Origin: an uncultured Gemmatimonadaceae bacterium
GTDB lineage: Bacteria > Gemmatimonadota > Gemmatimonadetes > Gemmatimonadales > Gemmatimonadaceae
Length of the DNA: 64,000 bases
Reading direction: 5' to 3'
Assembly (NCBI GenBank): GCA_963829055.1
Contig: CAWHHI010000020.1
Coordinates: 384,001-448,000 of the forward strand
This document shows positions 1,679 to 62,058 of the stretch, in pieces. A program made the translations under genes and the position numbers. The notes beneath the pieces are model-generated. The model ran no database searches, was not told the origin of the DNA, and saw nothing but the letters and a program-made list of their open reading frames with translations. Positions within the stretch are counted from its first letter, which is position 1. Every line of letters begins with the position of its first letter.

Positions 1679-1723
1679 AGCTTAGACCCAGGCGAGGAGC
1701 ACGACAGTTGGACTTTGGTCCAA
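1679..1723 (-). promoter_or_regulatory. Activator box plus promoter for the L,D-transpeptidase
   Basis: Minus strand TTGGAC-CAAA-GTCCAA (perfect 6+6 palindrome, 1708-1723), then CTGTCG, 17 bp, TAAGCT. Confidence 0.75.
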
Positions 1724-1743
1724 ACGCCACCCGTTGAGGCCGT

Positions 1744-2157
1744 TCAGAGTGCCGTCTCGCGCGGAGTGGTCATCACTCGCTCGATGGCGGCGAGTAGCTG
1801 ATCAGCTCCGATGGGCTTCCGCAGATACTCGGTGACACCGGTGGCGACGTAGCGCGCCTGGGCTTCGGGCGCGTCATCGGCGGTGTACACGATGGTCGGA
1901 AGGTTCACACCACGGTGGGCGAGATGCTGGTGCAGCTCCAGCCCGGTCATCCGCGGCATGTGCGCGTCCAGCAGCAGGCAGTCGGGGCGCGTCGCGCCGG
2001 CCTCGAGCGAGTCGATGAGCTCGCGGCCGGAGGCATAGATGGCGGGGTTCAAGCCGAGTGCGCCGCAGAGTCGGCGGAGAGCGATACGAACCGACTCCTC
2101 GTCATCGACGATCGCGATCGAGATGCAGTTGGGCGGCGGCATATGATCAGAGGACAT
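1744..2157 (-). CDS. Single-domain response regulator (receiver only)
   Basis: IAIVDDEESVR, CLLLDAHMPRMTG, YLRKP; no output domain; overlaps the kinase stop. Confidence 0.9.
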   Translation of the reverse strand: MSSDHMPPPNCISIAIVDDEESVRIALRRLCGALGLNPAIYASGRELIDSLEAGATRPDCLLLDAHMPRMTGLELHQHLAHRGVNLPTIVYTADDAPEAQARYVATGVTEYLRKPIGADQLLAAIERVMTTPRETAL

Positions 2158-4258
2158 CGGTTGACACGCGTGAAAGGTTGGTCGGTCCGCCTAACGCCAC
2201 TGCCCGCGGGGGCGCGACCGGCGCGGAGCTGAGCAGGCAGTGGACGGTGGCGCCTCGATCGGCGTTGTTCTGGGCCCACATGCGGCCACCATGCGCTGCG
2301 ACGATGGTCCTCGAGATCGAGAGTCCGAGACCGAGCCCTTCGGGCTTCGTCGTCACGAACGGCTCGAACAGTCGATCGATCACGGCCGCGGGAATCCCCG
2401 TGCCGCAATCGTGCACGGACAGATGCACGTTGCCCCTCGCATCGGAGTTCACGATCACGGACAACCTCCGATCGACCGGCGGCGTGGAGCTCATCGCCTC
2501 GCATGCGTTGACGACCACATTCAGCAACACCTGCTGTAGCTGCACACGATCGCCGAACACCGGAGAAATGTCGGGGGCGAAGAGCGCAGTCGCGACGACA
2601 CGACGGGCAATCAGCTCGGCATGTGCCAGCTCGAGTACCTCGTTGACCAGCTCTACCGGAGCTAGCAGCTGGGAACATACCTCGTTGCGATCGAGCAGCG
2701 CCCGAAGGCGTTGAATGACGTCGGCGGCGCGCTGGTTGGACGTGATGATGTCCCGAACGATCGCATCGAGCTCCTCGAGATCTGGCTGGTCGCGCGTGAG
2801 CAGAATTCGCGCGGCGCCCGCGTTGCCGGCGATGGACGCCAGCGGCTGATTCAACTCGTGCGCGAGAGCGCCCGAGAGTTGGCCTAACAGGGTGACCCGC
2901 GCGAGGTGCGAAAGCGCGCGTCGCTGCTCCTCGATTTCCATCAGCGCGTGGCGGCGTTTGGTCTCGTCGGCTCGCGTCACGACGGCACCGCCATCAGGTC
3001 GCTCGAGCGTTTCGACGCTGAAGACGGACCACGTCCGTTGGCCGTTCCGTTCGTGATCGTACTCCATCTCGAAGCGGTGTTGGTCGCGATTGAGCACGCG
3101 CAGGACGCCGGTCAACGCTCGGGCCGCGATGGGATCCCCTGTCTCTGCACCCAGGCGACACGCGCCCGCGTAATCGTCTCCCACACCGGCGCGCTCGAAT
3201 CTCAACACGCCGGACGTCTCGGCGAACCGCCGCCACGCGTCGTTCACCTCGAGGATAGTGCCGCGCGCATCGATGATGGCGACGTGATCGGGGAGTGACG
3301 CCAGAAGCGCGCGATGGAGCTGTACTACGCCATGCCTCGCCGTACTGACCGCGGCAATGCAGAGCACCGGGAGCGCCGTCAGGAGCACGAAGCCCTGCAG
3401 CACGAGCACGTTCTGGGCAGGCGATGATTCGAGAAACGGTCCGAAGCCGCGGTCGGCGCCCAGCAATGAGATGAACGTGGCCGCCGTGAGCGTGAGGCTC
3501 GCGCCCGCGGATCCGAAGCGAAGCGCCGCCCAGATGAGGACTGGCAACGGCGCGTACAACCGCTGAAGTGCGAAGTGCCACGGGCCGCTCGGAGGGACGA
3601 GGAACGCGATCGCGGTTGTCGCGACCAGCGCCCCGGCGAGCGCCATCGCCTCGCCCACTCGCCGTTTGTCCGCCCGGTGCCAGGGCCGTCGCAGGCCGCT
3701 CGTGGCCAGGAGAACGAATGCCGGAAGCATCGTTAGGCCGGTGAGCGCGTTGGACAGGAACCAGGCGCTCCACAGCTGCCGGTACGTCCCCGATCCACCA
3801 TGCAGCACGGCGTTTGCGGCGCCTATCGTCGCCCCGACCGCCGGTGCGATCAGCGCTGCACAGGCAACGAACATCCCCAGACTTCTGACGCTATCGAGAC
3901 GCGGTGGTCCCTTGAACACACGACCCAACAGCACGGCGGCGGTCAACGCGCGCGCGATGTTGGCGACGTCGGAGAGCAGGACCCACGACACGCTCCACCG
4001 CGGCCAACTCGTCACGAAGTGCATGAGCATGGCCACCAGGATGTATGGCAGCCACTTGCGCCGTGGTGATACGAGGAGCGCCGCGGTGAGCACCGCGTAC
4101 GGCGGAAAAAGAACGGCGCTTCCGAGGTCGGGGTAGCGGAACAGCGATCCGACCAGATTGCCTAACAAGCAGGCCAGCGTGAACATCCAGAGCCCGGGCG
4201 CCAGGGATTGCGTCCGTGCGTCCGCTTCGGGATCCGTAGTCGCGCGGTCTTCGCTCAT
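2147..4258 (-). CDS. MASE1-PAS sensor histidine kinase
   Basis: Multiple TM helices with MASE1-like PVLIWAALRFG; PAS segment; H-box ALAHELNQPL; N-box QQVLLNVVVNACEAM; G-box GLGLGLSISRTI. Start placed at ATG 4258 rather than the ORF-track 4597. Confidence 0.9.
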   Translation of the reverse strand: MSEDRATTDPEADARTQSLAPGLWMFTLACLLGNLVGSLFRYPDLGSAVLFPPYAVLTAALLVSPRRKWLPYILVAMLMHFVTSWPRWSVSWVLLSDVANIARALTAAVLLGRVFKGPPRLDSVRSLGMFVACAALIAPAVGATIGAANAVLHGGSGTYRQLWSAWFLSNALTGLTMLPAFVLLATSGLRRPWHRADKRRVGEAMALAGALVATTAIAFLVPPSGPWHFALQRLYAPLPVLIWAALRFGSAGASLTLTAATFISLLGADRGFGPFLESSPAQNVLVLQGFVLLTALPVLCIAAVSTARHGVVQLHRALLASLPDHVAIIDARGTILEVNDAWRRFAETSGVLRFERAGVGDDYAGACRLGAETGDPIAARALTGVLRVLNRDQHRFEMEYDHERNGQRTWSVFSVETLERPDGGAVVTRADETKRRHALMEIEEQRRALSHLARVTLLGQLSGALAHELNQPLASIAGNAGAARILLTRDQPDLEELDAIVRDIITSNQRAADVIQRLRALLDRNEVCSQLLAPVELVNEVLELAHAELIARRVVATALFAPDISPVFGDRVQLQQVLLNVVVNACEAMSSTPPVDRRLSVIVNSDARGNVHLSVHDCGTGIPAAVIDRLFEPFVTTKPEGLGLGLSISRTIVAAHGGRMWAQNNADRGATVHCLLSSAPVAPPRAVALGGPTNLSRVSTDVL

Positions 4259-4382
4259 CGCGTGCCGCTCGAGACATTCACTGGAGGAATCCGCCGCGCC
4301 GCGCCATCCGACCGCGACGTTGTCCAAAGCTGCCCCGAAGAGTTCCGCGACGCCACTCACGCCAATCGGTGGCGCGGCGTCC

Positions 4383-4616
4383 TCACCGGCACACTCGGGC
4401 ACGCGCCGGAGCAGATCCAGCGATGTACGACGCCACATCTTCGACGAGGCGCCGGAAGCGCGGGGCCTCCGACGGACGCATGCGCGAGAGCGTGTCGAGC
4501 GCATCGCGCACCGCCGCCACGACGTCAGGCCGTATCCGTTGATCGTCCTGGCGCGCGCGAACAAGGCGGCGACGCCGCCCATCATTCCGGCCTGCACGAT
4601 CGTGTATGCTCGCCAT
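4383..4616 (-). CDS. Small hypothetical protein (77 aa)
   Basis: ATG preceded by AGGGA, about 70 nt downstream of the predicted promoter at 4694-4738; no recognisable domain. Confidence 0.35.
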   Translation of the reverse strand: MASIHDRAGRNDGRRRRLVRARQDDQRIRPDVVAAVRDALDTLSRMRPSEAPRFRRLVEDVASYIAGSAPARARVCR

Positions 4617-4693: not shown

Positions 4694-4738
4694 AGCCTAT
4701 CCACGAGGCAGCCAGCCAGTCATTGGACTTTCGGCCTA
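4694..4738 (-). promoter_or_regulatory. Activator box plus promoter upstream of the small ORF/kinase/receiver unit
   Basis: Minus strand TAGGCC-GAAA-GTCCAA, TGACTG, 17 bp, TAGGCT. Confidence 0.7.
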
Positions 4739-4750
4739 GTGGCCCGGGAA

Positions 4751-7700
4751 TCACAACAGCAATCGGGCAAACCGACCGAGCCGGCGCTGCCATTTGCTGT
4801 AGGGTGGTATCAACTTGTCGAGCTCGGCTTCCGTCTCGATCCAGGTACTTCGCGTCATGAGCGAGAAAAGATCGAAGAGTCCCACAGCGCCGCTCATGCC
4901 CGACAGAACGAACAACGCTTCGCCATCGAGGAGCATACCGCGAGGGTCCTGATTCATCGTGCCGACGGTGAAGTAGAATGACATACGCGCACTGTCGGCT
5001 GGCGGACGGTTCGCGAGATACGCTTTGAGCAGGGTCTGGATCGCGGCTGCCCCTGCTGTCGTAACGCTGTCGTCGTACAGGCCGGTCTTGGTGCCGCGCT
5101 GGGCTTGCAGGGCGCGGGCGATGATCGTCTGGATCACGACCTCGCGCCACTCCGGCCGCGAGGCGAGCCGGGCGAGCGCAGCGGAATCGGCGAAGAATTG
5201 CGTCTTCCGATGCAACTGTGGCAACCGTGGTACTTCGTCGCGGCCGAGCTCGAACGGACGGTATCCCTTGCGTTCGAGTACGGCCGGCGCACTGTCGAGG
5301 ACCGCGAGGACACCTGGCGCGAGCGGGACCAGGTCGTGAAGCCACGGGTACCGATCCATTCCCGCGCGCACCGCACGTGACTGCTGGACAATGTCGTTCA
5401 CGTCTTCCTTGGCCGTATAGAGCCCGACTCGCAGCTCGCCGCCGGCTTTTTTGATCTCGTTTGTGAATTCATGGCGCACCTCCAGGAGCCGCAGCATCAC
5501 CTCCTGGATGCGTGACATTCTGCGGAAAGCCCGCGCTCGGTGCATTGGCGAGTGCCGGCGCGACGATGAACACGCGGCAGCCGCGGAGGGCTGCACCCGC
5601 GAGCATCCCCGCCCACCCGCTCGCGAGCCAGAGTCCGTCGGGGACGATGATGACGTTGCCGGGAGGCGACAGCGTGTAGAGCATTGCGCGCGCAATCGAT
5701 GCCTGCTTGGCTCCGAAGCCGGGCTCGTTATTCACCAGGAGCGCCCGACCCAGCTCGCTCGCCGCGACCGCGTCGCCATCATCGAGCGAGGCGTTCGTCG
5801 CCCGGCACGTATCGCAGCGAGGTGTTTCACGGAGCACCGGCGGAATCTCGGACGTCCTTGAAGCTGTTCAGTTTGAGCAATCGTCTCGCGGCGGCCCGCA
5901 CCTCCAATATGGCAGGCCCGCGAACGAGCATGCCGCGATCCTCCCAGGTCGGGGTCGCGTAATGCTCTCCGATACCCACCCCGGACAGCAGCATCCCACC
6001 CCGCTGCGGCGCCGATTCGGTGACGTCGTAGAACGCGATCTTCCGGTGGTCGCGCATGAGGTTATCCGGAAGCAGCGGCAGATTCGAAACGAGATGGTGG
6101 CTGCGGAACGTGAAGTCGCTCGGTTGCGTGATGCTCACGTGCACCTTGACGGTCCGTCGCAGCCAGTCTTCGCCACCGTGGCGGGCCGCGAGAGCCTGGA
6201 GCCCGTGCGACTGCAGGACCGCCTCACGCAGCGTTCGCTGCCGGTCGCGGAGGATCGTCTCCAGCGAGTCGTTTCCGCGCGGTAATTTGATCGTCGCGCC
6301 TAACGGGTCTTCCAGAATCGACATCCAGAGACGCCCGTTGTCAGGCTCGTAGAAGTTCTGGTCGAGAAAGAAGTAGTACGTCGTCAGGCTCCCTGTGCTG
6401 TCGAATCGCGCGACGGCCTGTGTGAGCGCCGGGAAGTACACGTTGGCCGTCTGCGCGAAGCCGACGCGGTCGACGTTTCCGGACGATCGCTGTCCGGCAT
6501 AGTCGTGAAGCCAGAGGACATGGTAGTCACGCGCCGCCAGGATCGTCCGGGCGAGCTCGATCTGCAGACGGTCCTCGCGCAGGTACGTGATCTCGTTCCC
6601 TCGCGTGAACGGTCGCCCGACGACCCGCGCGATGAGGGCGTCGACCTCTGCCTGATCGTCGTGCTGGTCCGGCGTGAGAGCGAACTGCAGCGGAAGCCAG
6701 ACGCGGCGCGAGTCGGACCACTGATTGGCGAGATGGTCATGGACGGCGACCACGGACGCGAGCCATTCCTCGTGCACGCGGACGACCGCGAGCCGCGATT
6801 CGTTCGTTAGGCCTGACGAGTCGGCCATCCACGCCTGCAAGTCGGCCCGCGTGGCATTGAGCAGCGGTGAGAGGAGGCTACCGCGCTCGCGTTCCTTGAC
6901 CTGGCCGAACAGTGCGTCGTACGGGATCAGGAACTGGGCGAGCAGTCCCGCGCGCGCGCGCCGAGCGACGATGCTGCCCAGCGCCGTGTCGCCGACGGCG
7001 ATGGCGAACGCCCGCTGGAGCGACGCTGCGTACACGCGCTCGGCCTCCTTGAACGTGTGCCCTTGAGGGTAGTCGGCCGAGACACGCAGCATGGTCTCGC
7101 GCGCGACTCGGGACATTTCGCGCATCTTCTCCGCGTCCTTCGCGCGATCGGTCTCGTGACGTTCGCTGAAAAAGTTGCTGGAGGCGGCGATCAGGAATGC
7201 GGCCTCTCGGACGAGACCGAGCGCGGTGTCGGCACTCGCCGGCAACGGTCGTGCCGGCCGCGCGCGTGACTGTTTCGCGCGGGTTGGTGATCGAGCGCGT
7301 GCGGTCCGTCGCACTACGGCGAGCAGCCTCGCGCAACAGATGCCCCGGTATTCTGCGGACGCGTTCTCCCAGCGTATCGCTGCCAGAGCGGGAGCGTGAT
7401 GCCGACATTGAATCCGCTGCTCCGCGACGGAATCCAATCGACGCGAAGTGTCGACCCGTTACCGAAGAGGCCACCGCGTCGAATCGCCGTGTTCAATGAC
7501 AGCATGAACGCGAAGTTGTTTTCCCGCGCGTCCCAGTCGACGCCGTAGCCGAGGTTCGCGGCGCGCGTCACGCCGAGGAGACGGAGGCCTCCCGTCGCAC
7601 CCCCGTCGGCCGCCAACACATACGCTTCGGACGAGAGTCCGAACATCCCGTTGACCGGGCTGCCTCTGGGGTGGAACAGACCGATCACCAGCCCGCCCAC

Positions 7701-7934
7701 CGCGTCGTTGTTGCGTCCGAAGGTGGCAACGGCCGACGTGTAGGCTTGCCAGAGCGGTGGTTGGCCCATTGACGTGATGGACGGAATCGCCGGCGGGCCG
7801 ACGGGAGACTGCGCGTCGGCTGGCGCGGACGCGGCAGTCGCGGCAAGCGCCACCCACCCGGAGATTGCCACCCGCGCCAGCGCGCGCGACGCGCGACACG
7901 CGACGGATGCGTCGCCTAGCAAGTCGTTAGGCAT
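4751..7934 (-). CDS. Large exported phospholipase D-superfamily protein, split by about 3 frameshifts
   Basis: Joins ORFs 7314-8069, 5827-7437, 5469-5837 and 4751-5695; signal peptide ending ASAPADAQ; HKD motif DHRKIAFYD; second LHRKTQFFAD followed later by VGTMNQDPRG. Confidence 0.7.
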
Positions 7935-8034: not shown

Positions 8035-8079
8035 AACATCGCGCCAAGAACACGCACGGGCGCTTCCACTTAGGTCCAA
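8035..8079 (-). promoter_or_regulatory. Activator box plus promoter for the PLD-like gene
   Basis: Minus strand TTGGAC-CTAA-GTGGAA, GCGCCC, 17 bp, GATGTT. Confidence 0.6.
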
Positions 8080-8387: not shown

Positions 8388-8403
8388 TTGGCCTAAAGTC
8401 TTA
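8388..8403. promoter_or_regulatory. Box variant upstream of the FixJ-type regulator
   Basis: TTGGCC-TAAA-GTCTTA flanked by A and T; no -10 hexamer at the standard distance. Confidence 0.45.
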
Positions 8404-8657: not shown

Positions 8658-9308
8658 ATGACTGACGAGACACCAACGATCACGATCGTCGACGATGATG
8701 ATTCGGTGCGCCGCGCACTCTCACGCCTGCTCCGCGCGAGCGGGTATCTCGTCAAGACCTATTCCTCAGCGCCGGAATTTCTGAGCGACCGGTCCCCGAT
8801 CGACGCCAGGACCAGCCTGTCTGCTCATCGACGTTCGAATGCCCGGCCTCAGCGGGCTCGAGCTGCAGGCCCTTCTCAACGACGCGAAGAACGACTCGGC
8901 GGTCGTATTCATGACGGGCCACGGCGACGTGCCCACCGGCGTCAAAGCGATGAAGTCCGGGGCGATCGACTTTCTCCTGAAGCCGTTCACTCGACGATGA
9001 GCTGCTCAACGCCGTGAGCCGGGCGCTCCAGTGGAACGCCGAGTTACGGCGTCCGGCGCCGGGACATCGACGAGCTCGAGCGTCGGGAGGCAAAGCTGAC
9101 TCGCCGTGAACGAGAGGTATGCGCTCTCGTCGTCACGGGGAGGCTCAACAAGCAGATTGCCGCCACGCTTGGCACGAGCGAGAAGACGGTGAAGGTGCAT
9201 CGATCGCGCGTCATGACCAAGATGGAAGTCGCATCACTCGCGGAGCTCGTCCGGACGGTCGAGCGACTCAATCGGGCTCATTCGAGCGCCGAGGCGAGCG
9301 GACCGTAA
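8658..9308 (+). CDS. FixJ/LuxR-family response regulator (receiver + HTH), frameshifted
   Basis: ITIVDDDDSVRRAL; LLIDVRMPGLSG and AMKSGAIDFLLKP in a shifted frame; LTRREREVCALVVTGRLNKQIAATLGTSEKTVKVHRSRVMTKM ending at TAA 9308. Confidence 0.88.
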
Positions 9309-9346: not shown

Positions 9347-12300
9347 ATGCCCCCTCCCTCGACCATCGACGCACGCCAGGTTGAATCCGGCTGGCGACGC
9401 GCGCACGCCCCGGGTACGCCTGGCGCTGGCATGCGTGGCGGTGGCCGTGGCGTATTACGCCGGTGCGAAGGCCGGGTTCGTACTCACGCCGAAGACGCAG
9501 CCCGTCTCGACGCTCTGGCCACCTAACGCGATTCTGATGGGCGCGCTGCTGCTCGCGCCAGCCCGGGCGTGGTGGCCGTCCTCCTGCTCGCGGCTCTCCC
9601 CGCGCACCTCGCCGTGGAGTTAGGCAGCGGAGTGCCGTTCGGGATGGTGCTGTCGTGGTTCGTCAGCAATTCGGCCGAAGCGCTGATCGGTGCGGCCATC
9701 GTCCGCCGCTTCATCAAGCCTCCGCTGCAGTTCGACACCTTTCGCAGCGTCGGGATTTTCGTGGTGGGCGCGGCGCTCGTCGCGCCGTTCGCTCTCCTCG
9801 TTCCTGGATGCCGCGTTCGTGCAGTGGAACGCGTGGGGAACCGCCGGCTACTGGGAAGTATGGCACGTCCGATTCTTCTCGAACGTCCTCACGATCCTGA
9901 TCATCGTGCCGGTGATCGTTTCGTGGGACCAGTCGGAACGCTGCAGTCGCTTCGCGCGATCACGGCTCGTCGGGCGCTCGAAGCGGGCCTGCTCGTCTCC
10001 ACGCTCCTCGTCGTGTCCACCATCGTGTTCGTGCGGCCGGCGTTAGGCGGCCCACGTGACGCGTGGCGCTGCTGGCCGCCCCGTTGCCATTTCTGCTGTG
10101 GGCCGCCCTCCGATTCGGACCGGCGGGCGCGAGCGGATGCCTGCTGGTAGTCGCCGTGCTCTCGGTGTGGGGTGCGATCCATGGGCAGGGTCCGTTCGTC
10201 GGCCTATCCGATCGCTGACTACGTCCTCTCGCTCCAGCTGTTCCTGATCGTCACGTATATCCCGATCTTCGCGCTCACGGCCGCCATTCGCGAATGCGTC
10301 AGAGCGGAGGAAGCCGCTCGGCGCAGCGAGGAGCGGCTCACGCTGTCGTTGAGCGCTGCACAGGTTGGCGCGTGGGACTGGAACATTCCGGCGGCCATCC
10401 GACAGGCGCCCGAGAGCACGAACGGACTGTTCGGCCAGCCCGCGACGGGCAACGGGGCGACCAACGGGAAGATCGATCACCCGGCGTTTCTCGACACGGT
10501 GAACGCCGACGACCGGCTGATCGTTCGTCGACGGCATCAGCGACGCCATCGAATACGCGAAGCCCTACGAGGTCGAGTTCCGCACCGCCGGCTCGAACGG
10601 AGCGATGCGGTGGATGTTGAGCAAGGGGACGGTCGTTCGCGACGGGACAGGTCGTCCGATCCGCATGGTCGGCGTCAATGCCGACATCACGGACGCGGAA
10701 GCGGGCCGAAGACGTCCTGCGGCAGCGAAGCCATGCGCGAGGAGAGTGACGCGCGGCTCCGGGCACTCGCGGACGCGATGCCGCAGATCGCGTTCACGGC
10801 GCGTCCCGATGGCGTGATCGACTACTTCAACGGAAAGTGGTACGAGTTCACCGGGCATGCCGAGGGATCAGGTCATCGACGAGACGCTGGGTCAACGTCA
10901 TCCACCCGAGTGGATCGGAATGGATGCGTGGAATCCTGGCACCAGGACGTCTCCAGGGGACGGCCGCACGAGCACGAGGGTCGCTTCTGGAACGCGCGGA
11001 CGGGTCGCTACCGATGGTTCCTCGCGCGCGCGCTTCCCGTGCGTGACGAGTCAGGCGCCATCATCCGCTGGTACGGCACGGCGACCGACATCGAGGATCA
11101 AAAACGCACGGAACACGCGCTGCGCGAGAGCGAAGGCAGCCTGCGCACCTTGCGATCGGAGCTCGAGTACCGCGTGTCGGAAGCGGACGCTGGCGCTCAG
11201 GCGATCGAACGTGACGCTGCACGAGGAGATCGACACTGCGCGTGCGAATCGAGCAGGCGCTTCGCGCGTCGGAGGAACGATTCGCCAAGGCGTTTCGCGC
11301 GAGCCTCGACGCCATCTCCATCTCGCAGCCATCCGGACGCGCGCATCCTCGAGATCAACGAGCGGCGCGAAGCGATGTTCGGGTATCGCGCGCGACGAGG
11401 TGATCGGGCGGACGATCGACGAGCTCGCAGATCTTCGCGCACCAGAAGAGACCGAAAGCGATTTCTCCGAGCTCATGCGAAGTCGCACGGGAATGTGCAC
11501 GAGCTCGAGCTCGACATGAGACACAAGAACGGCACGCTGCTGCGAGCCGTGCTGTCGGCGGAGACGGTCGAGGTTGGAGGCGATCCGTGCCTCATCATGA
11601 TGGTTCGCGACATCACGGAGCGTCAGCGCGCGGAGCGGAAGATCGCCGAGCAGCAGCGCGAGCTCGCGCACCTCGGCCGCGTCGCGATGCTCGGCGAATT
11701 GTCTGGGGCGCTGGCGCACGAGCTCAATCAGCCGCTCGCCGCCATTCTGGCGAATGCGCCGTGCGGCGCAGCGCCTGCTGACGCGCGGTGACGTCGATCA
11801 GACCGAGTTGCGCGCGATTCTCGATGACATCGTGTCTGACGATCGGCGGGCGGGAGAGGTGATCCGCCGCGTCCGGGCCATGCTTCGGAAGGACGAGACC
11901 GAGCTGCAACCGATCGCGCCGAACGATATCGTGACCGATGTGCTCGAGCTGGCGCACAGTGATCTGATTCAGCGCGGCGTGATCGTTTCGACGGACCTCG
12001 CGCCGTCGTTGCCGTATGTGCTGGCCGACGGTGTGCAGCTGCAGCAGGTGATGTTGAATCTGATCGTCAACGCGTGCGACGCGATGACGGAGTACCCGCC
12101 CGACGAGCGGATTCTGACCATATCGACGGGGCACGATCGGCACCACCGTCCGCGTGTCCGTCACCGACAACGGGACCGGTCTCACCAGTGAGCGGCTCGA
12201 GACCGTGTTTCAGCCCTTCGTGACGTCGAAGCGTCACGGGCTCGGCCTCGGCCTCACGATCTGTCGATCGATCGTCGAGGCGCACGGTGGGCGCATGTAG

Positions 12301-12414
12301 GCCGCCAACAACGTCGGCCGCGGCGCGACGTTTCACGTGGTGTTGCCGGCGTCATCGGAGCAGGGTCGGCCCACGGCCATGGCCCCGGCCGAGTCGGCAC
12401 CGGCAGCGCTGTAG
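9347..12414 (+). CDS. MASE1-multi-PAS sensor histidine kinase, multiple frameshifts and one in-frame TAG
   Basis: LWPPNAILMGALL (MASE1); PAS segments GAWDWNI, RWYGTATDIEDQK, MVRDITERQRAE; ALAHELNQPL; QQVMLNLIVNACDAM; GLGLGLTICRSI. Start approximate. Confidence 0.85.
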
Positions 12415-12432: not shown

Positions 12433-14592
12433 TCAGTTTCGGCGCGCGTTGCCTAACGGGATGGCGACGATGAACGCCGCCCCACCGGCCGTCGGATCAC
12501 TCTCGCACCAGATGACGCCGCCGTGCGCCTCGACGATCGTGCGGCTGATGGACAGGCCCACACCGAGGCCGTTCTTCTTCGAGGTGATGAACGGCTCGAA
12601 GATCGCCGCCTGGCGCTCGAGAGCGACGCCGGGTCCCGTGTCGCGGACCGTGAGGACGGCCGTATGCGTCGCGGCACGTGCGGTCTCGATGCGGACGAGC
12701 CGCTCGGCGTCCGGCGGCTGATCGGTGACCGCCTCGAGGGCGTTGAGCACGAGGTTCAGCGCGACCTGCTGCAGCTGCACGCGGTCGCCGACTACGATGA
12801 GTGGTTCGTGCGTGAGAACGAATCGGATCTCGACGCGGCGACGGATGCGTGTCGTGCCTAACGATTTGCACGGCTTCGCGCACCACCGTGTTGAGGTCGA
12901 TCGGTCCCCGCTCCACCTCGTCCTTCCTGGCGAATGCCCGCATGCGCTGGATCACCTCACCGGCGCGGCGGCCGTCGGCCGCGAGCTGATGGAGAATCTC
13001 TCGCACCGCCTCGGGATCGCGCGGCTGGGCGTCGAGCACCCGCATGGCGGTCTGAGAGTTGATGAGGATTGCCGTGAGCGGTTGACGGATCTCGTGCGCC
13101 AGCGCCGCGGCCAGCTCGCCGACCGTGGTCGTGCGCGCAACGTGCGCGAGCTCGCGGCTGCGCTGGGCAGTCGCCAGCTCGGCCGCCCTGAGCTCGGTGA
13201 TGTCCGTGACTGTACCGACGAGCCGTCCGGATTCCGGTTCATCGGGTAGCCGAGGCGCGGCACGGTCTCGAAACCAGCGCACGTTTCCATTGACGTCGAG
13301 CATCCGGAAGTCGAACGGCTCTGTCGGCGCCGTCATCTCTGCCCTGCCGTCGCGCGTTCCACACCTGGTGCAGCGCCGCGGTGTCATCGGGATGCACCTG
13401 CCGCCACCACCAGCCGGGCGACTCCATGTCCGACGCGGCGAGACCGAGGAGCCTGCCTAACGGGCCATCGGTGCTCACCGCGTCCGACGTCGGGATCATG
13501 GGCGTAGACGAACACGCCTCCCGCTTGCGTGGCGAGCGCGTATCGCGCGTCGTTCTGCGTCAACTGCGAGGTGACACGCCGGCGTTCGTCGATCGCGACC
13601 GCGAGAAAGAGCAGCGGGGTGGCCAGCGCGAGCAACACCAGTTGCTGCGCGACGATGCCAGTGGTCGTCGACGGTGAGCGAAAGGGCGGGACCCCGTGCA
13701 CCGCACCTCCTATGGCGACGCAGGCTCCGATCAGAAGCGCCGACGCCGCGCCCGCCAGCCCGAACCTGAGTGCAGCGATCATCACGAGCACGATCGGAGC
13801 GCACAGCACGATGGCGCGACCAACCACGTCGTCTGGCGATCGCATGAACAGCAGTGCGGCCAACAGCGCGGCAGCTCCGCCAAGGCAGAGCGCCTCGATC
13901 ACGCGCGCCCATCGTATGACCGACTGCGATTCGGTAGCGAACGTGCTGCTTCACCGTGGCGTGTGCGGCGAGTCCCACAGGCACGACGATCAGATAGGCC
14001 AGCGTATGACCCAGGATGGCGATCAGCCCGGGTGTCGAGTCGCCGGCCCCGAACGCCGTCCGCATTGCCTGGCGCGACGGGAAGGTCGATCTGAAACAGC
14101 GCCGCCGATCCGAGGAACACGAGCATTGGCGACACGCACGCGATGATCGTGAAGGCACCGATGGAGCCCACTGTATCGAGCCCCCACTTCAGGTCTACGT
14201 ACCGTCGTATCAGGGTGGCGGCGAGGACCGTGCTCGCCGCGTCGACCGCGAACGATGCGAGGATGTACGCGACGGATGCGTCCTGTCCGACCGACGTCAC
14301 CCAGCGGCCGACGAGCGCGGACGCGAGCACCGCCCACCAGCGAGCCGGCGGTGTGAGCAGGAGCGCAACCAGCACGAACGCGCTGGGAATGGACAGCGCT
14401 GGCGGGAACTGCGGCACCGACAGGTTCGCCTGCGTGAACCGTGGCGGCGATCGCGTAGGACACGGCGAACGCCGCCACGTTGCGTGCGAAGCGCAGCAGC
14501 TCGGGCCCATCGATCGCGCTGGGCTCGACGTTGGGGCGACGCATGGGCGTAGCCAAGCGAGACATGGGCGGAGCCAAGGGTATGCGTGCCAT
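12433..14592 (-). CDS. MASE1-PAS sensor histidine kinase, frameshifted
   Basis: Fragments give ALLLTPPARWW, IAALRFG, GTVTDITE, ALAHEIRQPL, QQVALNLVLNALEA, GLGVGLSISRTI. Confidence 0.85.
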
Positions 14593-15760: not shown

Positions 15761-15805
15761 ACGATGCACCCCTTGGGGAAGCGGACCCATTGGACCTTGG
15801 AGCAA
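15761..15805 (-). promoter_or_regulatory. Activator box plus promoter for FGE
   Basis: Minus strand TTGCTC-CAAG-GTCCAA, TGGGTC, 17 bp, CATCGT. Confidence 0.65.
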
Positions 15806-15819: not shown

Positions 15820-15865
15820 CTAACCAAAGGTCCAATGTCGTCGCGCCCAAGCTGCGCACCACTCT
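15820..15865 (+). promoter_or_regulatory. Activator box plus promoter for the NTT-like operon, divergent from FGE
   Basis: CTAACC-AAAG-GTCCAA, TGTCGT, 18 bp, CACTCT. Confidence 0.55.
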
Positions 15866-15930: not shown

Positions 15931-18275
15931 ATGATTCGATCGCGCGCGGCCGCTCTGACGTTGCTCTATCTGCTCGTCGTGTGCGCTGTCGGAATGCTGC
16001 ACCCGGTTCGCAACGCGCTCGTGCTCGGCGCTCTCGGTGGAAGCGGCTTCTACAAGGTGTATCTCGCGAGCGCGCTGGTGGCGTTCGCCATCGTGCCGTT
16101 CAATCGTCTGGCCGCCCGCATCCCGCAGCAGCGCCTAACGCCGGCGGTCGCCACATTCTTCGCCGTCAACCTGGTCCTGTTCCGGGTGTTCTTCCCGGGT
16201 GGTGTGCTGTTCGGCGTGCTGTTCTACGCCTGGCACGACTTCTACGCCGGCATCCTCATCTCGCAGTTCTTCCTCGCCACGTCCGAGGTCCTCGACCAGC
16301 GCAATGCGAAGAAGGCGCTCCCGGTCATCATCGCTGCCGGGTCGGTCGGCGCGGCGATAGGCGGCGCGGTCACAGGGTTTCTTGCCCCGGCGATCGGCGT
16401 AGCCAACCTGCTCCTCATCGCGGCCGCATTGACGTTCATCTTCGCCATCGCGTTACCCGCGATTACCGGTGGGGCGACGCCCAAGTCCGATTCACACGTG
16501 CGCGTTGTCGAACCTACCCTTCGCGCGCCCATCCGCGACGTCGTCAGAAACCGCCAGGTGCAGCTCATCGCCGGGACTGTCGTGCTGACCGTGCTCGTCA
16601 AGCAGATCGTCGACTACCAGTTCAACACCGCCACGCGCGTCGCTCGGCGACCGCGAAGCGGTCAGCACCTTCCAGGGAAAGTTCAACGCCGCGACGCAAT
16701 GTCTGCCGCTGCGTAGCCGCGCTGGCCATTCGTCCCGCACTCGCGCAATGGGGCGTGGGGGCCGCGCTACTCATGCTCCCGGCAGGCATGATCGTGACGA
16801 ACCTGATTGTCGGCTGGCGCGGTGGACTCGGCCCCGCCGCGCTCGCGAAGGGTACAGAAATGACACTGCGGTATTCCGCCGAGCGGACCGGGCGCGAGAT
16901 CCTGTACATGCCGGTGTCAGCAACGATCCGCGCGCGAGCGAAGCCGATCATCGACGTCGGGTTGGAGAGTGGACTGGCCAAGGCGTTGAGCGCCGGGGTG
17001 ATCTTCGTGCTGCTCGCGACCGTCGGTCCGAGCCGCCTGGCGTGGTCGTGTGTCGCGCTGTCAGTCATCTGGCTCGGCGCCGCGGTCGCGCAGCGTCGAG
17101 TGTACGTGCGGTCGCTCGCCAGCGCGGTGCGCGTCCCGATGACCGGACTCGCCGAGCTGTCGGCCACGCTCAACGAGCCGGCCATGCAGGAGGTAGTTAG
17201 GCAGACACTCGCCAGTGGCACTCCGGCGCAGATCGCATTCATCCGCGATCTGCTGGCGGAGTCCGCGACGCCGACCGCGCGATCGAGCGACCCGGCCGAG
17301 GGAGCGGATGGTCTTCTCGACACCGCCGCTGACGGCGCACTCGAGCTTCCGGTGCGAACTGCCGCGCTGCACAAGCTTCGCCGATTGCGCACCGTTGAGC
17401 CGACGACCAACATCGCCCGCGACGTCGTCCAGCGCATCATCGGCACGCACCTCGACGCAGCGGAACGCTACCGAGCCGCCGGTGCGACGCTCCAGCGGAG
17501 TACCGCACCGACCGAACGCGATCGCCTGCTGCAACGCGCGATCATCGAAGCGTGGCAAACGCGCCAGACAGCCGTGTTCGACGGGCTCGGAGTGATCCAC
17601 GAGTCTCGCGTCGTCGAGGGATGCTACCGTGCGATCACCGGCAGCAACGAGCGGCATCGTGCCTCGGCGTTGGAGCTGATCGAGGAAGCAGGTTCGCGAC
17701 AGTGGGTGCGGCGACTCGACCCCATCCTCCGTGCCACGCCCGACTACAGCTCGTACCCCACGATTGGCGATCGCAGCGAGGTCATCGCCGAGCTCCAGAA
17801 TGACGACGACTGGTGGGTCGCGCAGTGTGCCGCCTATTCCGCGAACGCCGCCGGGGGACACGAGACGATGCAGATCATCGAGCGGGTTTTCTTACTCCAG
17901 CGCGTCGACATCTTCGCTGCGACGGCCAGTCAACATCTCGCGCGTATCGCGCTCGTCACGCGGGAGGTCGAAGCAGACGACGGAGCCGTGCTGCTCCATG
18001 CGGACCAGCCGGCCGACGCGATGTATGTCGTCATCGACGGTGAGCTCCGCGCCAGTGCCAGAGGAGCAACGAGGTCCATCACCGCTGGTGAGGCGGTTGG
18101 CGCACTCGCGTTGCTCGATGATACGCCGCTCGCGCTCGACGTCCGGGCGGTGAAGAACAGTCGTCTGTTGCGCCTAACGAAGCGTGATCTCCACGACCTC
18201 CTGCACGATCACCCTGATCTTGCCGTGTCGCTCCTGCACGGCATGGCGACCCGCCTGCGAGGAATGGCATCATGA
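15931..18275 (+). CDS. NTT/TLC-like MFS nucleotide transporter with HEAT-like helical region and C-terminal cNMP-binding domain; frameshift near 16650-16715
   Basis: PVRNAL, SQFFLATSEVLDQRNAKK, KQIVDYQF, TLRYSAERTGREILYMPV...RAKPIID; MQIIERVFLLQRVDIF...MYVVIDGEL. The cNMP domain from 17868 may have its own start. Confidence 0.8.
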
Positions 18276-19223
18276 GACGTCTCGTATTGGTCGTTGGCGG
18301 CCTCCTGGCCTCGGGCGTAGCTGCGCACGTTGGGGCGCAGGACGCGAACATCATGCTGCCGGCGGCGCGAGTGGAAGCGCTGCTGCGCGAGGGCCCGATC
18401 AAGCCGGTGGCGAACGAGGGGTCGCGGTACCACGGGGACCGGACCGAGCACGTGCTGCTGTCCTTCGACGATACCACGACGTTCGAGGTGAAGTGGGCGG
18501 TATCGGCTCCCGGCGGCGAGGCATTCAACAATCAACCGCGGTACGAGACCGCTGCGTACCTGCTGCAAAAGCTCTTTCTCGACGAGCGCGACTACGTCGT
18601 GCCGCCCACCGCCCTGCGCATGCTCCCGCAGGCCGCGTTCATCGAGGGGCTCCGTGGTGAGCGAACGTTCGCCGATGACCCATACGTGCTCGTCGCGCTG
18701 CAATACTGGACGGCGGATGTGACGAGTGACGGCGTGTTCGACAAGAAACGCGCCGAGCGCGACTCGGTGTACGCTCGGCACCTCGGCGACCTGAACATCC
18801 TCACCTACCTGATTCGGCAGCGCGACGCGAACAAGGGGAACGTGCTGATCGCGACCGACTCCACCAGGCCGCGGCTGTTCGCTGTCGATAACGGCGTAGC
18901 GTTCGAGAGCCAGCCGAGCAACCGTGGCACCGATTGGCAGTACATGCGAGTGTCGCGAGTCAGCGCGGCGACGGCTGCTCGCCTCCGGACGATCACCGAG
19001 GCGAACCTGGTGCAAGCGCTCGCGGTCGTGGCGCAGTTCGAGCGGCGCGGGTCAGACTACGTCGCCGGCGGCGCTCGGTGAGAGCCTCGACAAGAAACGT
19101 GGCGTGCGTCGCACGGCGACCGCGCTGCAACTCGGACTGACGTCGTCCGAGATCGAGGGAGTTCAAACCCGGCTCCGCAGCCTGCTCAAGGACATCGACC
19201 GCGGGAAGATCAAGACGTTCTAG
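18272..19223 (+). CDS. Exported PI3/PI4-kinase-like atypical kinase; frameshift near 19075
   Basis: Signal peptide ending AHVGAQ; VKW lysine, YETAAY, VVPPT, QRDANKGNVL, LFAVDNGVAF; start overlaps the upstream stop (ATGA). Confidence 0.65.
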
Positions 19224-19261
19224 GCACGCATGGCCTAGGCACGCGTGGCGGACGGGGCTGG

Positions 19262-19645
19262 TCAGCGCAGCGATCGAGCGTGCACGACACGCCGCACGAG
19301 GGCGAGGAGTTGATCGCCGTCGAACGGCTTCCGTAAATACCCATCCGGGCCCGCACGGCGTTCCAGCTCGGCCGAGGACACCTCGTCGTGCGCGGTGATG
19401 AAGACGATCGATACCCGAGATCCTGACGCGATCAGGCGATCCTGGAGGTCGAACCCACTCATGCTGCCCAAGTGCACATCGAGCACGAGACACGTCGGCT
19501 CGCGTTCGAGCGCGGCGCTCAGGTACTCGTGTGCGGACGCATACGTCTCGACGGCGATGCCGGCGGTGCGCAGCACGCGACCCAGCGCCGAGCGCACCGA
19601 CGGATCATCATCGACGATGGCAACCCATCGGTCGTTCGGCGCCAT
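19262..19645 (-). CDS. Single-domain response regulator
   Basis: VAIVDDDPSVR, CLVLDVHLGSMSG, FITAH, YLRKP. Confidence 0.9.
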   Translation of the reverse strand: MAPNDRWVAIVDDDPSVRSALGRVLRTAGIAVETYASAHEYLSAALEREPTCLVLDVHLGSMSGFDLQDRLIASGSRVSIVFITAHDEVSSAELERRAGPDGYLRKPFDGDQLLALVRRVVHARSLR

Positions 19646-19825
19646 CTCCGCTCCGCTCGCTCTCGCAGCGTCGCGTGGCGGCTCTCCATGCTGTGGCATC
19701 AGGTGACCAGCTCCCCGCGCCCCGCCGCTGCGGCCTAACGCGAGTCGGCCGACGAAGGAGGCACGCCATTGCCGTTAGGCAGATCGACGCGAATGTCATG
19801 CGTGGCCGCGCGCAGCCCGCCAGCA

Positions 19826-19870
19826 AGGGTAGGAGGCTTCGGGCGACGCGCCCATTATACCTTCGGTCAA
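19826..19870 (-). promoter_or_regulatory. Activator box overlapping the regulator stop codon, plus promoter for the receiver gene
   Basis: Minus strand TTGACC-GAAG-GTATAA, TGGGCG, 17 bp, TACCCT. Confidence 0.6.
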
Positions 19871-20623
19871 TCGGCGTGCGCGTGCAGGGCGTGGTGGGCG
19901 TGCTCGCGCGTGAACCCGACCGCGTTGGAGAACCCCAGGGGACCGCTGTCGAACGTTGGCGGCAGCGCCACGGGCACGTCGCGCCACGTCGCGCGATCGA
20001 ACTGGTCACTCGCGCGATCGAACAGGTCCATCGCCCGAACGAGGTCGGCGAGCGAGCCCGCGTGCATCTTCCGCATGACGCGGGAGCGATGGACCTTCAC
20101 CGTCTGTTCGCACATCCCGAGCTCGGCGGCGATCTGCTTGTTGAGCCGGCCCGCGACGACGCGATGGCAGACCTCGTGCTCTCGCGGAGTCAGCGTGTCG
20201 TACACCGATTTGATCTCGGCGACCCGACGACGCGTCGTATCGGACAGCGAGCTCTCGCTTGATGGCGCGGCGCACCGCATTGAGCACCGCCTCCTCCTCC
20301 ACCGGCTTGAGGAGAAAGTCCTCCGCGCCGGCCTTCATCGCCTGCACGCTGGTCGTCACGTCATCGCTTCCGGTGACGAATACCGTGGCGATGTCACGCC
20401 CGGACTGTATGAGCGCGTTCTTGACCTCGAGCCCCGTCATATCGGGCATCCGAACGTCGAGGAGCAGACAGGCTGCTTTCCCGGTGGTTCCGTGCTCGAG
20501 GAAGTCAGTGCCGCTGTCGAACGTGGCTACCTGGTAGCCCGCCGTGATGAGAAGCCAGCGGAGGGAACGTCTGACGGACTCGTCGTCGTCGACAACCAGG
20601 ACGAGTCGCTGAACATCATCCAT
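19867..20623 (-). CDS. FixJ/LuxR-family response regulator; frameshift near 20250
   Basis: VLVVDDDESVRRSL, LLLDVRMPDMTG, AMKAGAEDFLLKP; LTPREHEV...GRLNKQIAAELGMCEQTVKVHRSRVMRKM. Confidence 0.9.
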
Positions 20624-20711: not shown

Positions 20712-20756
20712 ACGATGGTAAGAATCGGTCAATGTGGCTACGTCCCAAAGGTCCAA
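20712..20756 (-). promoter_or_regulatory. Activator box plus promoter for the second FixJ-type regulator
   Basis: Minus strand TTGGAC-CTTT-GGGACG, TAGCCA, 17 bp, CATCGT. Confidence 0.6.
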
Positions 20757-37641: not shown

Positions 37642-37865
37642 GGGTCGACGTAGTCCGGCGCACGAGACCGTCGTACGCGAGCCGCCGGTACGCGAGACCG
37701 CCGCGGCGGGCGGCGCGACACGACCACGACGGAGTTCGCGGTCGCGAGCCCGGCCATCCCGATCCCGTTTCATCGACTGCTCAAAGTGGTGGCGCTGGTG
37801 GATCGCGAAGATCCACAGACGCGACAGCTGCTCGATCACATCGCCGAGAGAAGTTCGAGATCGAG

Positions 37866-40088: not shown

Positions 40089-40146
40089 CCTGACCCTCCC
40101 TGAGACGGGGGTCGCGAAAGGGACGGCCGCGAAGGCAGCAAAGAAG

Positions 40147-41469: not shown

Positions 41470-41494
41470 GGAACAACGGCACAGGAGAAATTCC

Positions 41495-42469: not shown

Positions 42470-42494
42470 GTCAGACCTCAAGGGGGTCGTTGAT

Positions 42495-46454: not shown

Positions 46455-46470
46455 GCGTACGAAGGCCCAA
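46455..46470 (+). promoter_or_regulatory. Box variant upstream of the YHS-protein/antiporter unit
   Basis: GCGTAC-GAAG-GCCCAA then TTGTCC; GATTGT follows after only 13 bp. Confidence 0.45.
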
Positions 46471-52425: not shown

Positions 52426-52471
52426 TGGGACTTTCATTCAATTGCAACGCTCTGCCGAGCGCGGCCAAAGT
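52426..52471 (+). promoter_or_regulatory. Activator box variant plus promoter for xfp-glgX-glgP
   Basis: TGGGAC-TTTC-ATTCAA, TTGCAA, 18 bp, CAAAGT. Confidence 0.55.
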
Positions 52472-59750: not shown

Positions 59751-61992
59751 TCAGAGCTGTCTCGAGAACCCGTAGACGAATCGGAGGCCTCTCCGCATGT
59801 CGTGCGTCGCATCGATCGGCAGGGCGACGCCGAGGTAGACGGTACTGCCGAAGAGCCGGACCCCGAAGCTCGCCGTGGCACGGAGCGCCTCGGTGGGCAC
59901 CGACGCCGGCACCGGTTGCCCGGTCTCCGGATCGATTTCCACCTGGCCCGTACTCGTATCCACCTTGTCGCCCAGCCGCCTAACGGCCGCGCGCGCCTGG
60001 TCGTTGCTCGCCCACGCCATCCCCGTCTGGACGCCCATCACCAGATCCGGCGCGACCGGCGGGAACACGAACCCGGTGAAGATCGGGACCGGTGCGCGGA
60101 GGGTCGGAATCGCGTACTGGACCGTCCCGCGCGCGATCCACGCGCGGTCGCCGGCGAACGCCTTGTAGTCGTAGCCCGGAAGGTTCTGCGTCGACCCGAT
60201 CTCGAACAGCTGCTGCGTGGGGACGGTACCGCCGATCAACCCGCCGTACAGCCGTTCGATGAACAGCAGCGACCTGACAGTCTGGCGCGCGATGAACACC
60301 CCTTCCACCCGCTGGTAGTCGAGGTCGCCGTCGCCGCGCTCGTAGCGGACGCCGCCGCCGAAGCGCTCGCGCGTGAGGTCGGCGTGGATGTCGGGGTTCC
60401 ACTCCACGATCGCGATCGACCGCACGTACTGGCCGGGATCGACGATACGGTTCGGACGGAACGGGCTGAAGAAGATGCCTTCCTTCCGGTGTTGCGCCGC
60501 GCCGGTGTCGCGAACAACGCCCAGCTCCAGACGGACGTGCATCCCGGTCGGCGTGAGCACGTTCTCCGCCGTTAGGCGGGCAACACGTCGGTCGACGTAA
60601 TCGTTGTCGTCGGCGGACCAGAAGATGGCCGACCACACGCTGCCGGAGTCGAGTGGCGAGCGGAAGTCGTTCGTCAGATCGAGCAGCCGAGCGACGGCCC
60701 CGGTCGTGATCCACCCATGACGCCGAAAGCCCGGCGCCGACGTAGCCGCGCCACGTCTCCTCGGACCACGCGTAGCCCGCCGTTCCGACCACCGACAAGC
60801 CGGGCACGCGATCGCGCGCGAGCCAGGAGGCGGACAGGCCGGTGTACACCCCCTCCACCTTGTTGAACCGGAACACCTCGTAGTCATTGCGCGCGCGAAA
60901 CGACCAGCGAGGCGGCCCGGTGGGTTTCACGCGATCGGGGTAGAGGTCGTCGAGTGCCTCGTTCTGCGCGATCTCGGTCGCACGCCCTATGGGGAGCAGC
61001 CATGCGCCGTACGCGTCCTGCGAATCGCGGGGCGCATACGTGATGCGATACTGCGGCGATCGCCGCTGAGCGCTGTCGGGCGGTGGGGGCGGGTCACGGG
61101 CAATGATGTCATGGTGTCTGAAGCGCGTCACGAAACGGAGCAGCGTTGCCGATTGTCCCACCACGCCACCGCGCACGATGTCGAGGCGCTCGATGTCGGG
61201 GAGGCGCAGGCCATCCCGCTCGGGGCCGTTCCACATGTCCACGAACCCGACCACTCGCTCGCTCCCGGTGATGTCGTCGAGCGCCTGTATCGCCACGTGG
61301 TGGATGATGTACACCCGGCCGCGCAGGTGGACGACGAGCAGCGTCCGCGCATCGATGTCCACGTCGCCGGCGAACACGCCCGTTCCGGAGGAGACATCCT
61401 CGCGCGGCTGAACCGTGATTCGCATCACGTCGACCGAATCGCCGTTAGGCATGGGCTCGCGAAGCGAGTCGACACGGGGGTACTCATAGTAGTCGGGCCC
61501 GTCCCGAGCGAGCGGATGGACGGTCGCGACGGTCTCCGGCTCGAAGAGGAACCGTCGTATCTGCCGCACGACGGGGTCGAGCGCTTTCTCGACCTTCGAA
61601 ACGCTGGCGGGATTCGGGAACCGCAGGCGGAAGCGATCGCCCTGCAGCACCGGGACGACCCACCCGGCGCGATAGACGCGGGTCATCGCGAGCTCCATCC
61701 CCACCTGCTCGGCGCGATAGCCTGTGACGCGCTGCTCGATGACGCTGTCGCGCGTCCACTCGATCGTCGACGCCTGCTGCTGCATGGAGACGACCTCGCG
61801 CCGTCCCGACGCGCGGCGCGCGACGACGGCGATCTCGGTCTCGAATTCCATCCGTGCTCGATACGGCCGCGCCTCGTAGTTACGAGCCGCGGCTCTCGAG
61901 ACGAGCACGCGGACGTCTGGAGGCGTGAGGACCGAGGAATCCTGCGTCACCACCTGCGGCGCGAGGAGGAGCGTGATGAACGTGGCGAGCAC
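59751..61992 (-). CDS. Exported protein with C-terminal outer-membrane beta-barrel; frameshift near 60720
   Basis: Short signal peptide; FRFNKVEGVYTG; LPGYDYKAFAGD; terminal RFVYGFSRQL. Confidence 0.7.
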
Positions 61993-62012
61993 GAGGACTG
62001 GTTAGGCGCGGG

Positions 62013-62058
62013 ATACTGGGGAGCCTGAAGTCTCGATGGCCTTTGTGCCAAGGTCCAA
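62013..62058 (-). promoter_or_regulatory. Activator box plus promoter for the barrel gene
   Basis: Minus strand TTGGAC-CTTG-GCACAA, AGGCCA, 18 bp, CAGTAT. Confidence 0.55.

Follow-up and report, generated by a model that had tools for sequence, protein, structure and literature searches.

The stretch of DNA analysed here (the window; 64,000 nucleotides, C20:384001-448000, where C20 is the contig) belongs to a 7.78-Mb assembly with 66% GC, referred to as genome G000, and encodes YkuD, Omp85/TamB and HlyD proteins, three Orn/Lys/Arg decarboxylases with APC permeases, phosphoketolase, isoamylase, glycogen phosphorylase, a protein with an FGE domain and two StyR/FixJ-type response regulators, RR1 and RR2; a third regulator, RR3, is encoded farther along the same contig. 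Genes of G000 were called with a codon-usage script that left about 28% of the sequence as non-coding. An earlier note on the window had listed 15 copies of a 16-bp pseudo-palindrome, TTGGAC-N4-GTCCAA (hereafter, the box), and had proposed that they make up a class II activator regulon read by both local regulators. Every one of these copies was found again at its position (cf. Table 1), as were the xAxxxT hexamers that follow, read toward the downstream gene, at 6+17 nt in nine cases and 6+18 nt in three. The three sites named as misfits were confirmed too, two of them (8388 and 46455) having no such hexamer and the third (33773) having one at a shorter distance, while the box at 27665 turned out to fit on the plus strand as well. 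Single-base frameshifts are frequent across the window (regulators, kinases, decarboxylase, phosphoketolase and phosphorylase genes), and the resulting gene breaks are not to be taken as decay because related contigs lack the extra base where this was tested.

A matrix of the box was built from the 15 window sites and scored on DNA that the earlier note had not covered, namely the 109 other 64-kb bins of G000, with a main threshold of 11 bits. The bin adjacent to the window ranked first at every threshold. It held 17 matches of at least 11 bits, compared with a mean of 1.39 over the 109 bins and four in the next best one, and the matches were not biased toward coding DNA, since 16 of the 17 were intergenic in a bin of which 31% is non-coding. 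Altogether, C20 385.7-514.2 kb contains 30 sites that reach 11 bits or more. An oriented model composed of the box, the next hexamer and the -10 hexamer, and trained on the window sites (52426 was entered as minus though plus is right, the only effect being a weaker model), gave 18 matches over the 67 kb that follow, compared with 24 over the other 7.65 Mb of the genome. The physical clustering proposed in the earlier note thus holds, and its extent is about 130 kb, beyond the window. The box is also conserved upstream of orthologues in four genomes of the same genus (G001, G002, G005 and G006). In addition, a genome of another family (G029) has seven box sites, and G155, with similar cargo, has ten in 40 kb; G244 carries two perfect boxes far from its EKT-type regulator gene (the type is defined below), and clustering is thus not universal. 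The cluster regulators are patchy among relatives, being present in four of six same-genus genomes. A recent horizontal arrival of the cluster was considered and is not supported (GC3 0.83 vs 0.82; genus word GCCTAACG at 0.83 vs 0.64 per kb).

For the promoter geometry, the direction of each held-out site was taken only from the gene beside it, which was unambiguous for 15 of 20. An xAxxxT hexamer 22-24 nt past the box was present in 12 of these 15 when read toward the gene vs 2 of 15 when read away from it, in agreement with the class II-type arrangement that had been claimed, in which a dimer site abuts the -35 hexamer and the -10 follows at a constant spacing. On the basis of sigma70 spacing, the box would span -51 to -36, with its centre at -43.5. 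The -35 hexamers, described earlier as mostly poor, are indeed degenerate, but they are not random (T 14, G 10, G 10, C 10 and C 9 of 15). At the RR1 promoter, the orthologues in G005, G002 and G001 have a common -35 hexamer, TGTAGG, and CACGCT or CAGGCT at 6+17, and autoregulation through the box at 8388 is likely.

Table 1. Box copies, regulators and kinases of the cluster (window positions unless prefixed with C20; the spacing is the distance in nucleotides from the box to the xAxxxT hexamer)
Feature	Position	Strand	Hexamer (position, spacing)	Downstream gene or remark
Perfect box TTGGAC-N4-GTCCAA	1708-1723	-	TAAGCT (1679-1684, 6+17)	YkuD L,D-transpeptidase
Box	4723-4738	-	TAGGCT (4694-4699, 6+17)	MASE1 histidine kinase and single receiver gene
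Box	8064-8079	-	GATGTT (8035-8040, 6+17)	Frameshifted gene of ~1025 amino acids without Pfam match
Box	8388-8403	+		RR1; no -10 fit in the window copy
Box	15790-15805	-	CATCGT (15761-15766, 6+17)	FGE-sulfatase-domain gene; kept in four relatives
Divergent box	15820-15835	+	CACTCT (15860-15865, 6+18)	Membrane protein with cyclic-nucleotide (cNMP)-binding domain; kept in four relatives
Variant box (TTATAC-type proximal half)	19855-19870	-	TACCCT (19826-19831, 6+17)	At RR2 end
Weak box	20741-20756	-	CATCGT (20712-20717, 6+17)	RR2; box at the same place in three relatives
Box	27665-27680	both	CAACCT (27636-27641, 6+17); CATGGT (27705-27710, 6+18)	Between divergent Omp85 genes: Omp85-POTRA plus TamB on minus, Omp85-like on plus
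Half-strong box	29588-29603	+	GATGGT (29627-29632, 6+17)	Exported protein, DUF4136, DUF481
Box	32356-32371	+	GATTGT (32395-32400, 6+17)	HlyD-type membrane fusion protein
Box	33773-33788	+	GACAGT (33811-33816, 6+16)	Porin-like gene and decarboxylase/permease genes
Weak box	46455-46470	+		APC permease; no -10 fit; doubtful member
Box	52426-52441	+	CAAAGT (52466-52471, 6+18)	Phosphoketolase, isoamylase, glycogen phosphorylase
Box	62043-62058	-	CAGTAT (62013-62018, 6+18)	Frameshifted gene of ~720-750 amino acids without Pfam match
RR1	8658-9308	+		StyR/FixJ-type response regulator, helix EKTVKVHRSRVM; three frameshifts in assembly
RR2	19867-20623	-		StyR/FixJ-type response regulator, helix EQTVKVHRSRVM; one frameshift in assembly
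RR3	C20:503018-503740			ERTVKRHR helix; adjoins TTG(T/C)AC variant
EIT-type regulator	C20:372984-373583			
MASE1-PAS histidine kinase	9468-12357	+		Downstream of RR1; frameshifted; range is the tblastn match to the intact orthologue
Second MASE1 histidine kinase	12433-14441	-		Frameshifted
Third MASE1 histidine kinase	2147-4597	-		
Single-domain receiver protein	1744-2142	-		
Single-domain receiver protein	19262-19645	-		Downstream of RR2

Both regulators of the window combine a receiver domain with a GerE-type helix-turn-helix (HTH), as seen from Pfam matches on the pieces of RR2 and a GerE match at RR1. The closest structure to the intact RR1 orthologue is StyR (E 1.6e-51), and the phospho-acceptor Asp, Thr and Lys of the receiver (D58, T86 and K108) are invariant in eight of eight orthologues and relatives, the window copies being frameshifted. 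The earlier note had described the two recognition helices as near-identical. TVKVHRSRVM is in fact common to both, but the preceding residues differ, EK in RR1 vs EQ in RR2, and regulators are named below by this position and its neighbours (EKT, EQT, ERT, EIT and EVT types, or K, Q, R, I and V). RR1 is the sole EKTVKxHR protein among the 38 GerE matches in G000.

The type of helix and the presence of the box were then compared in two sets of foreign loci. The first consisted of 79 non-kin loci (Bacillota, Desulfobacterota, Verrucomicrobiota, Acidobacteriota, Rokubacteria, Proteobacteria and others), of which 76 could be classified, and the second of 80 metagenome loci, of which 72 could be classified and eight could not; for the latter set, the test of EKT against other loci had been recorded beforehand. 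At a threshold of 14 bits, the box was found in 27 of 32 EKT loci vs 4 of 44 others in the first set, where the grouping was chosen post hoc, and in 15 of 24 vs 5 of 48 in the second, where it was pre-specified. The foreign boxes, which are often situated 100-250 nt past the helix, just beyond the stop codon of the regulator gene, are near-perfect palindromes of 16-18 bp, whereas in G000 the gene-proximal half is the conserved one. The palindrome is commonly 18 bp long, with A before it in 32 and T after it in 33 of 40 foreign sites, and the final T doubles as the first base of the -35 hexamer. Among the sites of K-type loci, 40 of 76 could be oriented, and in these the xAxxxT hexamer peaked at 23 nt (13/40 toward the gene vs 3/40 away). 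Tandem boxes 15 or 22 nt apart occur at six loci (L099, L154, L181, L028, L129 and L171), a spacing that suggests cooperative binding of two dimers.

Counting of palindromes without any matrix gave TTGGAC-N4 as the top word in EKT loci (26/55 vs 2/109), and CTATAC-N4 (9/33) and TTATAC-N4 (8/33) in EIT loci, vs 1/131; no clear word emerged from ERT loci, whose half-site was defined afterwards by eye, and no strong word with gaps of 3 or 5. Sorted post hoc into half-site classes, 33 of 55 K loci have a GG-type (TTGGAC or TAGGAC) box, 8 of 18 R loci a TTG(T/C)(A/C)C-type and 16 of 33 I loci a YTATAC-type one, with at most two cross-hits per class. GG-type boxes were present at 1 of 18 R, 0 of 33 I and 0 of 5 Q loci, the last being a small sample. 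These results support a local FixJ/LuxR-type regulator as the candidate reader, given that EKT-type loci across phyla carry the box, and they do not support the earlier claim that both regulators act on it, because K and Q differ before TVK and GG-type boxes go with K. Considering the EKT and EQT helices together with the subfamily-specific half-sites, RR1 is therefore the likely reader. Within the phylum, at least two exact boxes were found in three of the five genomes coding for an EKT helix vs none of 295 without one (300 genomes in total), and any box in 3/5 vs 5/295; the other two EKT-coding genomes have matrix matches beside their regulators.

The palindrome YTATAC-N4-GTATAR, found at 16 of 33 EIT loci and 0 of 55 EKT loci (within L013-L172), is a second undescribed box. 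In G000, the perfect palindrome CGATAC-CTAG-GTATCG occurs at C20:377405 and 379119, 6.6 and 4.9 kb left of the window, each copy preceded by TTGCAC-N4-GTATCG and located, in the vicinity of the EIT-type regulator, between epoxide-hydrolase-like genes and kinases; these palindromes are likely the own box of that system. The sorting of half-sites by regulator type thus recurs within G000, with CGATAC palindromes beside the EIT-type regulator and RY-type boxes grouped close to RR3 (see below). Azospirillum and Rhizobium etli plasmid records, with EIT and EVT helices, gave two and one matrix matches, respectively, which is the level of shuffled sequence. A link to NodW is not claimed, as the Bradyrhizobium loci with an EITVKIHRG helix (L073 and L082) have no YTATAC box.

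Transcription starts mapped in Sinorhizobium meliloti offered a further comparison. On pSymA, four variant boxes of the same geometry (523129, 526274, 948865 and 951504; loci L009 and L092) lie around SMa0937-0943 and SMa1683-1688, and are candidate targets of SMa0940 and SMa1686. These two are ERT-type relatives encoded, like RR1, in clusters of kinase, regulator, receiver and sulfatase genes, and they differ from it in having R for K and TTG(T/C)(A/C)C-type half-sites. Starts were predicted 36 nt from the box edge before they were looked up (PMC3616915, supplementary file 2). For the box 523129-523144, a mapped start at 523093 on the minus strand lies 36 nt from the edge, exactly as predicted, and a divergent start at 523180 on the plus strand lies 36 nt from the other edge (PMC3616915). 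With one of the four predictions exact, the comparison as a whole gives modest support to the start geometry. The available part of PMC4560400 names no target for SMa1686.

Taken together, these findings make it probable that (A)TTGGAC-YWWR-GTCCAA(T) is a box bound by RR1, through which about 30 predicted promoters in a 130-kb cluster would be activated. In the mechanism that we propose, an adjacent MASE1-PAS kinase would phosphorylate RR1, and the phosphorylated regulator would form a dimer on the box, directly ahead of the -35 hexamer, and recruit RNA polymerase, presumably with sigma70 and as an activator rather than a repressor. By analogy to EL222 and LuxR only, the activator may contact region 4 of sigma or the alpha subunit. 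RR1, RR2, a kinase and receiver genes have boxes ahead of them, and the circuit may therefore be subject to positive autoregulation. RR2 (EQT) and RR3 (ERT) probably favour variant half-sites, in which case the cluster would likely consist of two or three overlapping sub-regulons.

Several results weigh against this reading. The literal pattern TTGGAC-N4-GTCCAA with up to three mismatches is not enriched in the window (14 matches vs 16.8 in shuffled sequence), and these matches take in just 8 of the 15 sites; it was therefore the 15-site matrix that was tested on unseen sequence. Three sites score no more than 7 bits when left out of the matrix, 20741 (2.5), 29588 (6.4) and 46455 (7.0). A box of at least 14 bits is missing from 5 of 32 and 9 of 24 EKT loci, some of which are short, and in the foreign loci the full 22-24 nt interval gave 19/40 vs 11/40, which is not significant (p 0.11). 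In S. meliloti, three of the four predicted starts were missed, all at boxes of ERT-type variants: 948829 and 951555 are unlisted in the available part of the file, and the start predicted at 526324 is mapped at 526345; moreover, the plus-strand start at 523180 was spotted only after the look-up, and it has no xAxxxT hexamer. Furthermore, the helix residue tracks mostly one deep split of the regulator tree, with three independent pairs on well-supported branches. Fisher p-values therefore overstate the tie, which is to be read as an association with a subfamily and not as causation by a single residue, and an independent-pairs test with these three usable pairs was uninformative for K/TTGGAC and I,V/YTATAC alike. 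Finally, both RR1 and RR2 are frameshifted in the G000 assembly. For RR1, an assembly error is likely, though not proven, since contigs from four sequencing runs lack one base at 8804-8805, and the orthologues of both regulators are intact in relatives.

Among the alternatives, the one that survives best, and which we nevertheless consider unlikely, is that RR1 and RR2 (and RR3) share one degenerate box as homo- or heterodimers, the variation of half-sites being noise or a mark of heterodimers. It would account for the TVKVHRSRVM helix common to RR1 and RR2, their co-occurrence in relatives, the many boxes with unlike halves and the two sites of at least 14 bits at the EQT locus L104. Two observations argue against it: (i) the half-site classes, although drawn up post hoc, separate by helix residue, and (ii) G000 has six RY-type sites close to RR3, at 481-498 kb, and the window is free of them. 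At C20:498381-500336 (L175:10381-12336), a protein of 651 amino acids is encoded in which the LysR HTH and the LysR substrate domain each occur twice, arranged in tandem.

It is still less probable that a distant factor of the NarL, CRP/FNR or LexA type binds the box, or that the local regulator acts as a repressor. In favour of this reading, GerE gives 38 matches in the genome, Crp 7 and LexA 4, EKTV is found in two other GerE proteins with RNH or ARH behind it, and GGAC-N4-GTCC resembles the LexA boxes of Gram-positive bacteria. The cluster, however, contains no Crp or LexA match, and the box goes with EKT regulators across phyla, commonly at the short distance past the helix described above. 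As for particular candidates, the CRP/FNR patterns TTGAY-N4-RTCAA and TGTGA-N6-TCACA occur 0 times in 131 kb, and upstream of the two lexA-like genes no site scores above 5.5 and 7.5 bits, respectively; neither CRP/FNR nor LexA/SOS was retained. A site that ends at -36 beside a weak -35 hexamer fits activation, which speaks against repression.

The remaining two explanations are highly improbable. The box might be the extended upstream part of a promoter for an alternative sigma factor, as in G000 its conserved proximal half leads directly to a T-G-G-C-C-like hexamer that keeps a constant spacing from the -10, but the foreign sites are near-perfect palindromes, divergent genes are served by one and the same box at 27665 and at S. 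meliloti 523129, the -10 hexamers show the A2/T6 pattern of sigma70 and the co-occurring gene is that of a response regulator. That the boxes are functionless relics of copied promoter fragments is suggested by the identical 16-mer and -10 that precede efflux genes at window position 32356 and, upstream of an AcrB-type gene, at C20:456283, and is contradicted by spacers that vary among sites while box and -10 stay, and by the persistence of boxes at orthologous promoters with diverged flanks and in other phyla.

Beyond the window, where 40 proteins were scanned, the cluster encodes SulP, PPK2, AcrB with an outer-membrane factor, DcaP, glutaminase, an Asp-Ala exchanger, asparaginase, an aspartase-type lyase, MscS, and DUF1254/1214, DUF3300 and DUF2092 proteins, not each with its own box. 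A gene set of this kind would serve to consume protons and to yield ATP at the substrate level when conditions are acid or poor in oxygen, and to remodel the envelope. Since the cluster unites decarboxylases and antiporters, glutaminase, asparaginase, aspartase, PPK2, phosphoketolase, glycogen breakdown and envelope proteins, its physiology could be survival under acid or oxygen-poor conditions, which we regard as possible, if short of probable; the label "stress regulon" of the earlier note is likewise drawn only from gene content. Some of the cargo is worth describing for itself. Three tandem Orn/Lys/Arg decarboxylases, an APC permease and a solute-binding protein (window 35314-44828) stand behind one box, that at 33773. 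Two large conserved proteins without Pfam match also follow boxes (4751-7934, minus strand, ~1025 amino acids, and 59751-62001, minus strand, 720-750 amino acids), and their genes, 52 kb apart in the window, adjoin in relatives (L001:13984-17061 and 17605-19761). The cNMP-binding membrane protein (~818 amino acids) is followed by an exported protein without Pfam match (window 15931-19081; L001:1396-4808), and the pair is kept beside RR2 in relatives.

EKT-subfamily regulators are widespread among soil bacteria from many phyla, and the literature searched yielded no published target sequence for them. With the box defined and its place in the promoter fixed, their regulons would become predictable, as well as those of SMa1686 and SMa0940 in S. 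meliloti; the circuit would also be one of few concrete ones in Gemmatimonadota. Going further, and only tentatively, the first residue of the helix may set the DNA target across the whole family (K for TTGGAC, R for TTG(T/C)(A/C)C, I for YTATAC and V for ATAAAC) on one 6-4-6 scaffold centred at -43.5, G000 then harbouring a self-regulating 130-kb cluster for acid or low-oxygen survival with three paralogues and overlapping but distinct boxes. If true, the regulons of thousands of orphan two-component systems could be read from sequence. If causal, the K/R/I pattern would amount to a simple rule of recognition that joins EL222, StyR and possibly DosR, with uses in annotation and in the design of orthogonal switches.

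Among known systems, EL222 has a helix, SEKTVKMHR, of the same EKTVKxHR type as RR1. It binds RGNCYWWRGNCY (PMC10521638), a consensus that includes the core of the box, and activates the luxI promoter, of the sigma70 kind, when its site is put in place of the lux box, beside the -35 (PMC5001607). The inner 12 bp of the box agree with this consensus exactly in 31 of 40 strong foreign sites, which had been chosen with the matrix, and with one mismatch in the other nine; in the window, 2, 4, 5 and 4 sites have 0, 1, 2 and 3 mismatches to it, respectively. EL222 differs in its light-gated LOV domain, in place of which RR1 has a receiver domain, and the box described here adds conserved TT/AA outer bases to the EL222 consensus. 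StyR, TodT and TmoT share with RR1 the domain layout and a 6-4-6 palindrome with an AC-N4-GT core, the StyR-family box being ATAAAC-N4-GTTTAT and the helix TVKVHR, as in RR1 (PMC5874301). However, StyR has an EVT helix (the StyR/TodT kind being EVT or EIT), and these systems have ATAAAC instead of TTGGAC half-sites, TodS-type hybrid kinases instead of MASE1-PAS membrane proteins and one catabolic operon compared with about 30 predicted promoters, and the present cluster does not class as a StyR/TodT regulon. FixJ of S. meliloti, of the same family, recognises an imperfect palindrome of 16-18 bp upstream of fixK, TAAGTAATTTCCCTTA (PMC4999443), and differs in its TVEVHR-type helix, its site and its action mainly via FixK and NifA. 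For OsdR, the motif is AGGGCCGATCGGCCCT, with sites such as AGGGACCTTCGGCCCC (PMC5069765), and in DosR, Lys179 and Lys182 contact bases (PMC4082495). DosR/DevR and OsdR resemble the present system in their NarL-type HTH, a 16-nt palindrome of similar inner pattern and clustered targets, but the outer bases are AGGG/GGGG, DosR is a distant match to the RR1-type HTH (E 5e-4) and the cluster does not class as a regulon of this kind; universal stress protein and nitroreductase domains were absent from the 95 proteins scanned. The two DosR lysines would correspond to those of EKTVK. No description of the box, its variants or its regulators was found in the literature, subscription papers, figure logos and DNA affinity purification sequencing (DAP-seq) supplements lying beyond the search. 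Thus, the type of mechanism, a two-component activator beside the -35 hexamer, is familiar, whereas the box, its tie to the EKT subfamily across phyla, the K/R/I pattern and the extent of the clustered regulon are new.

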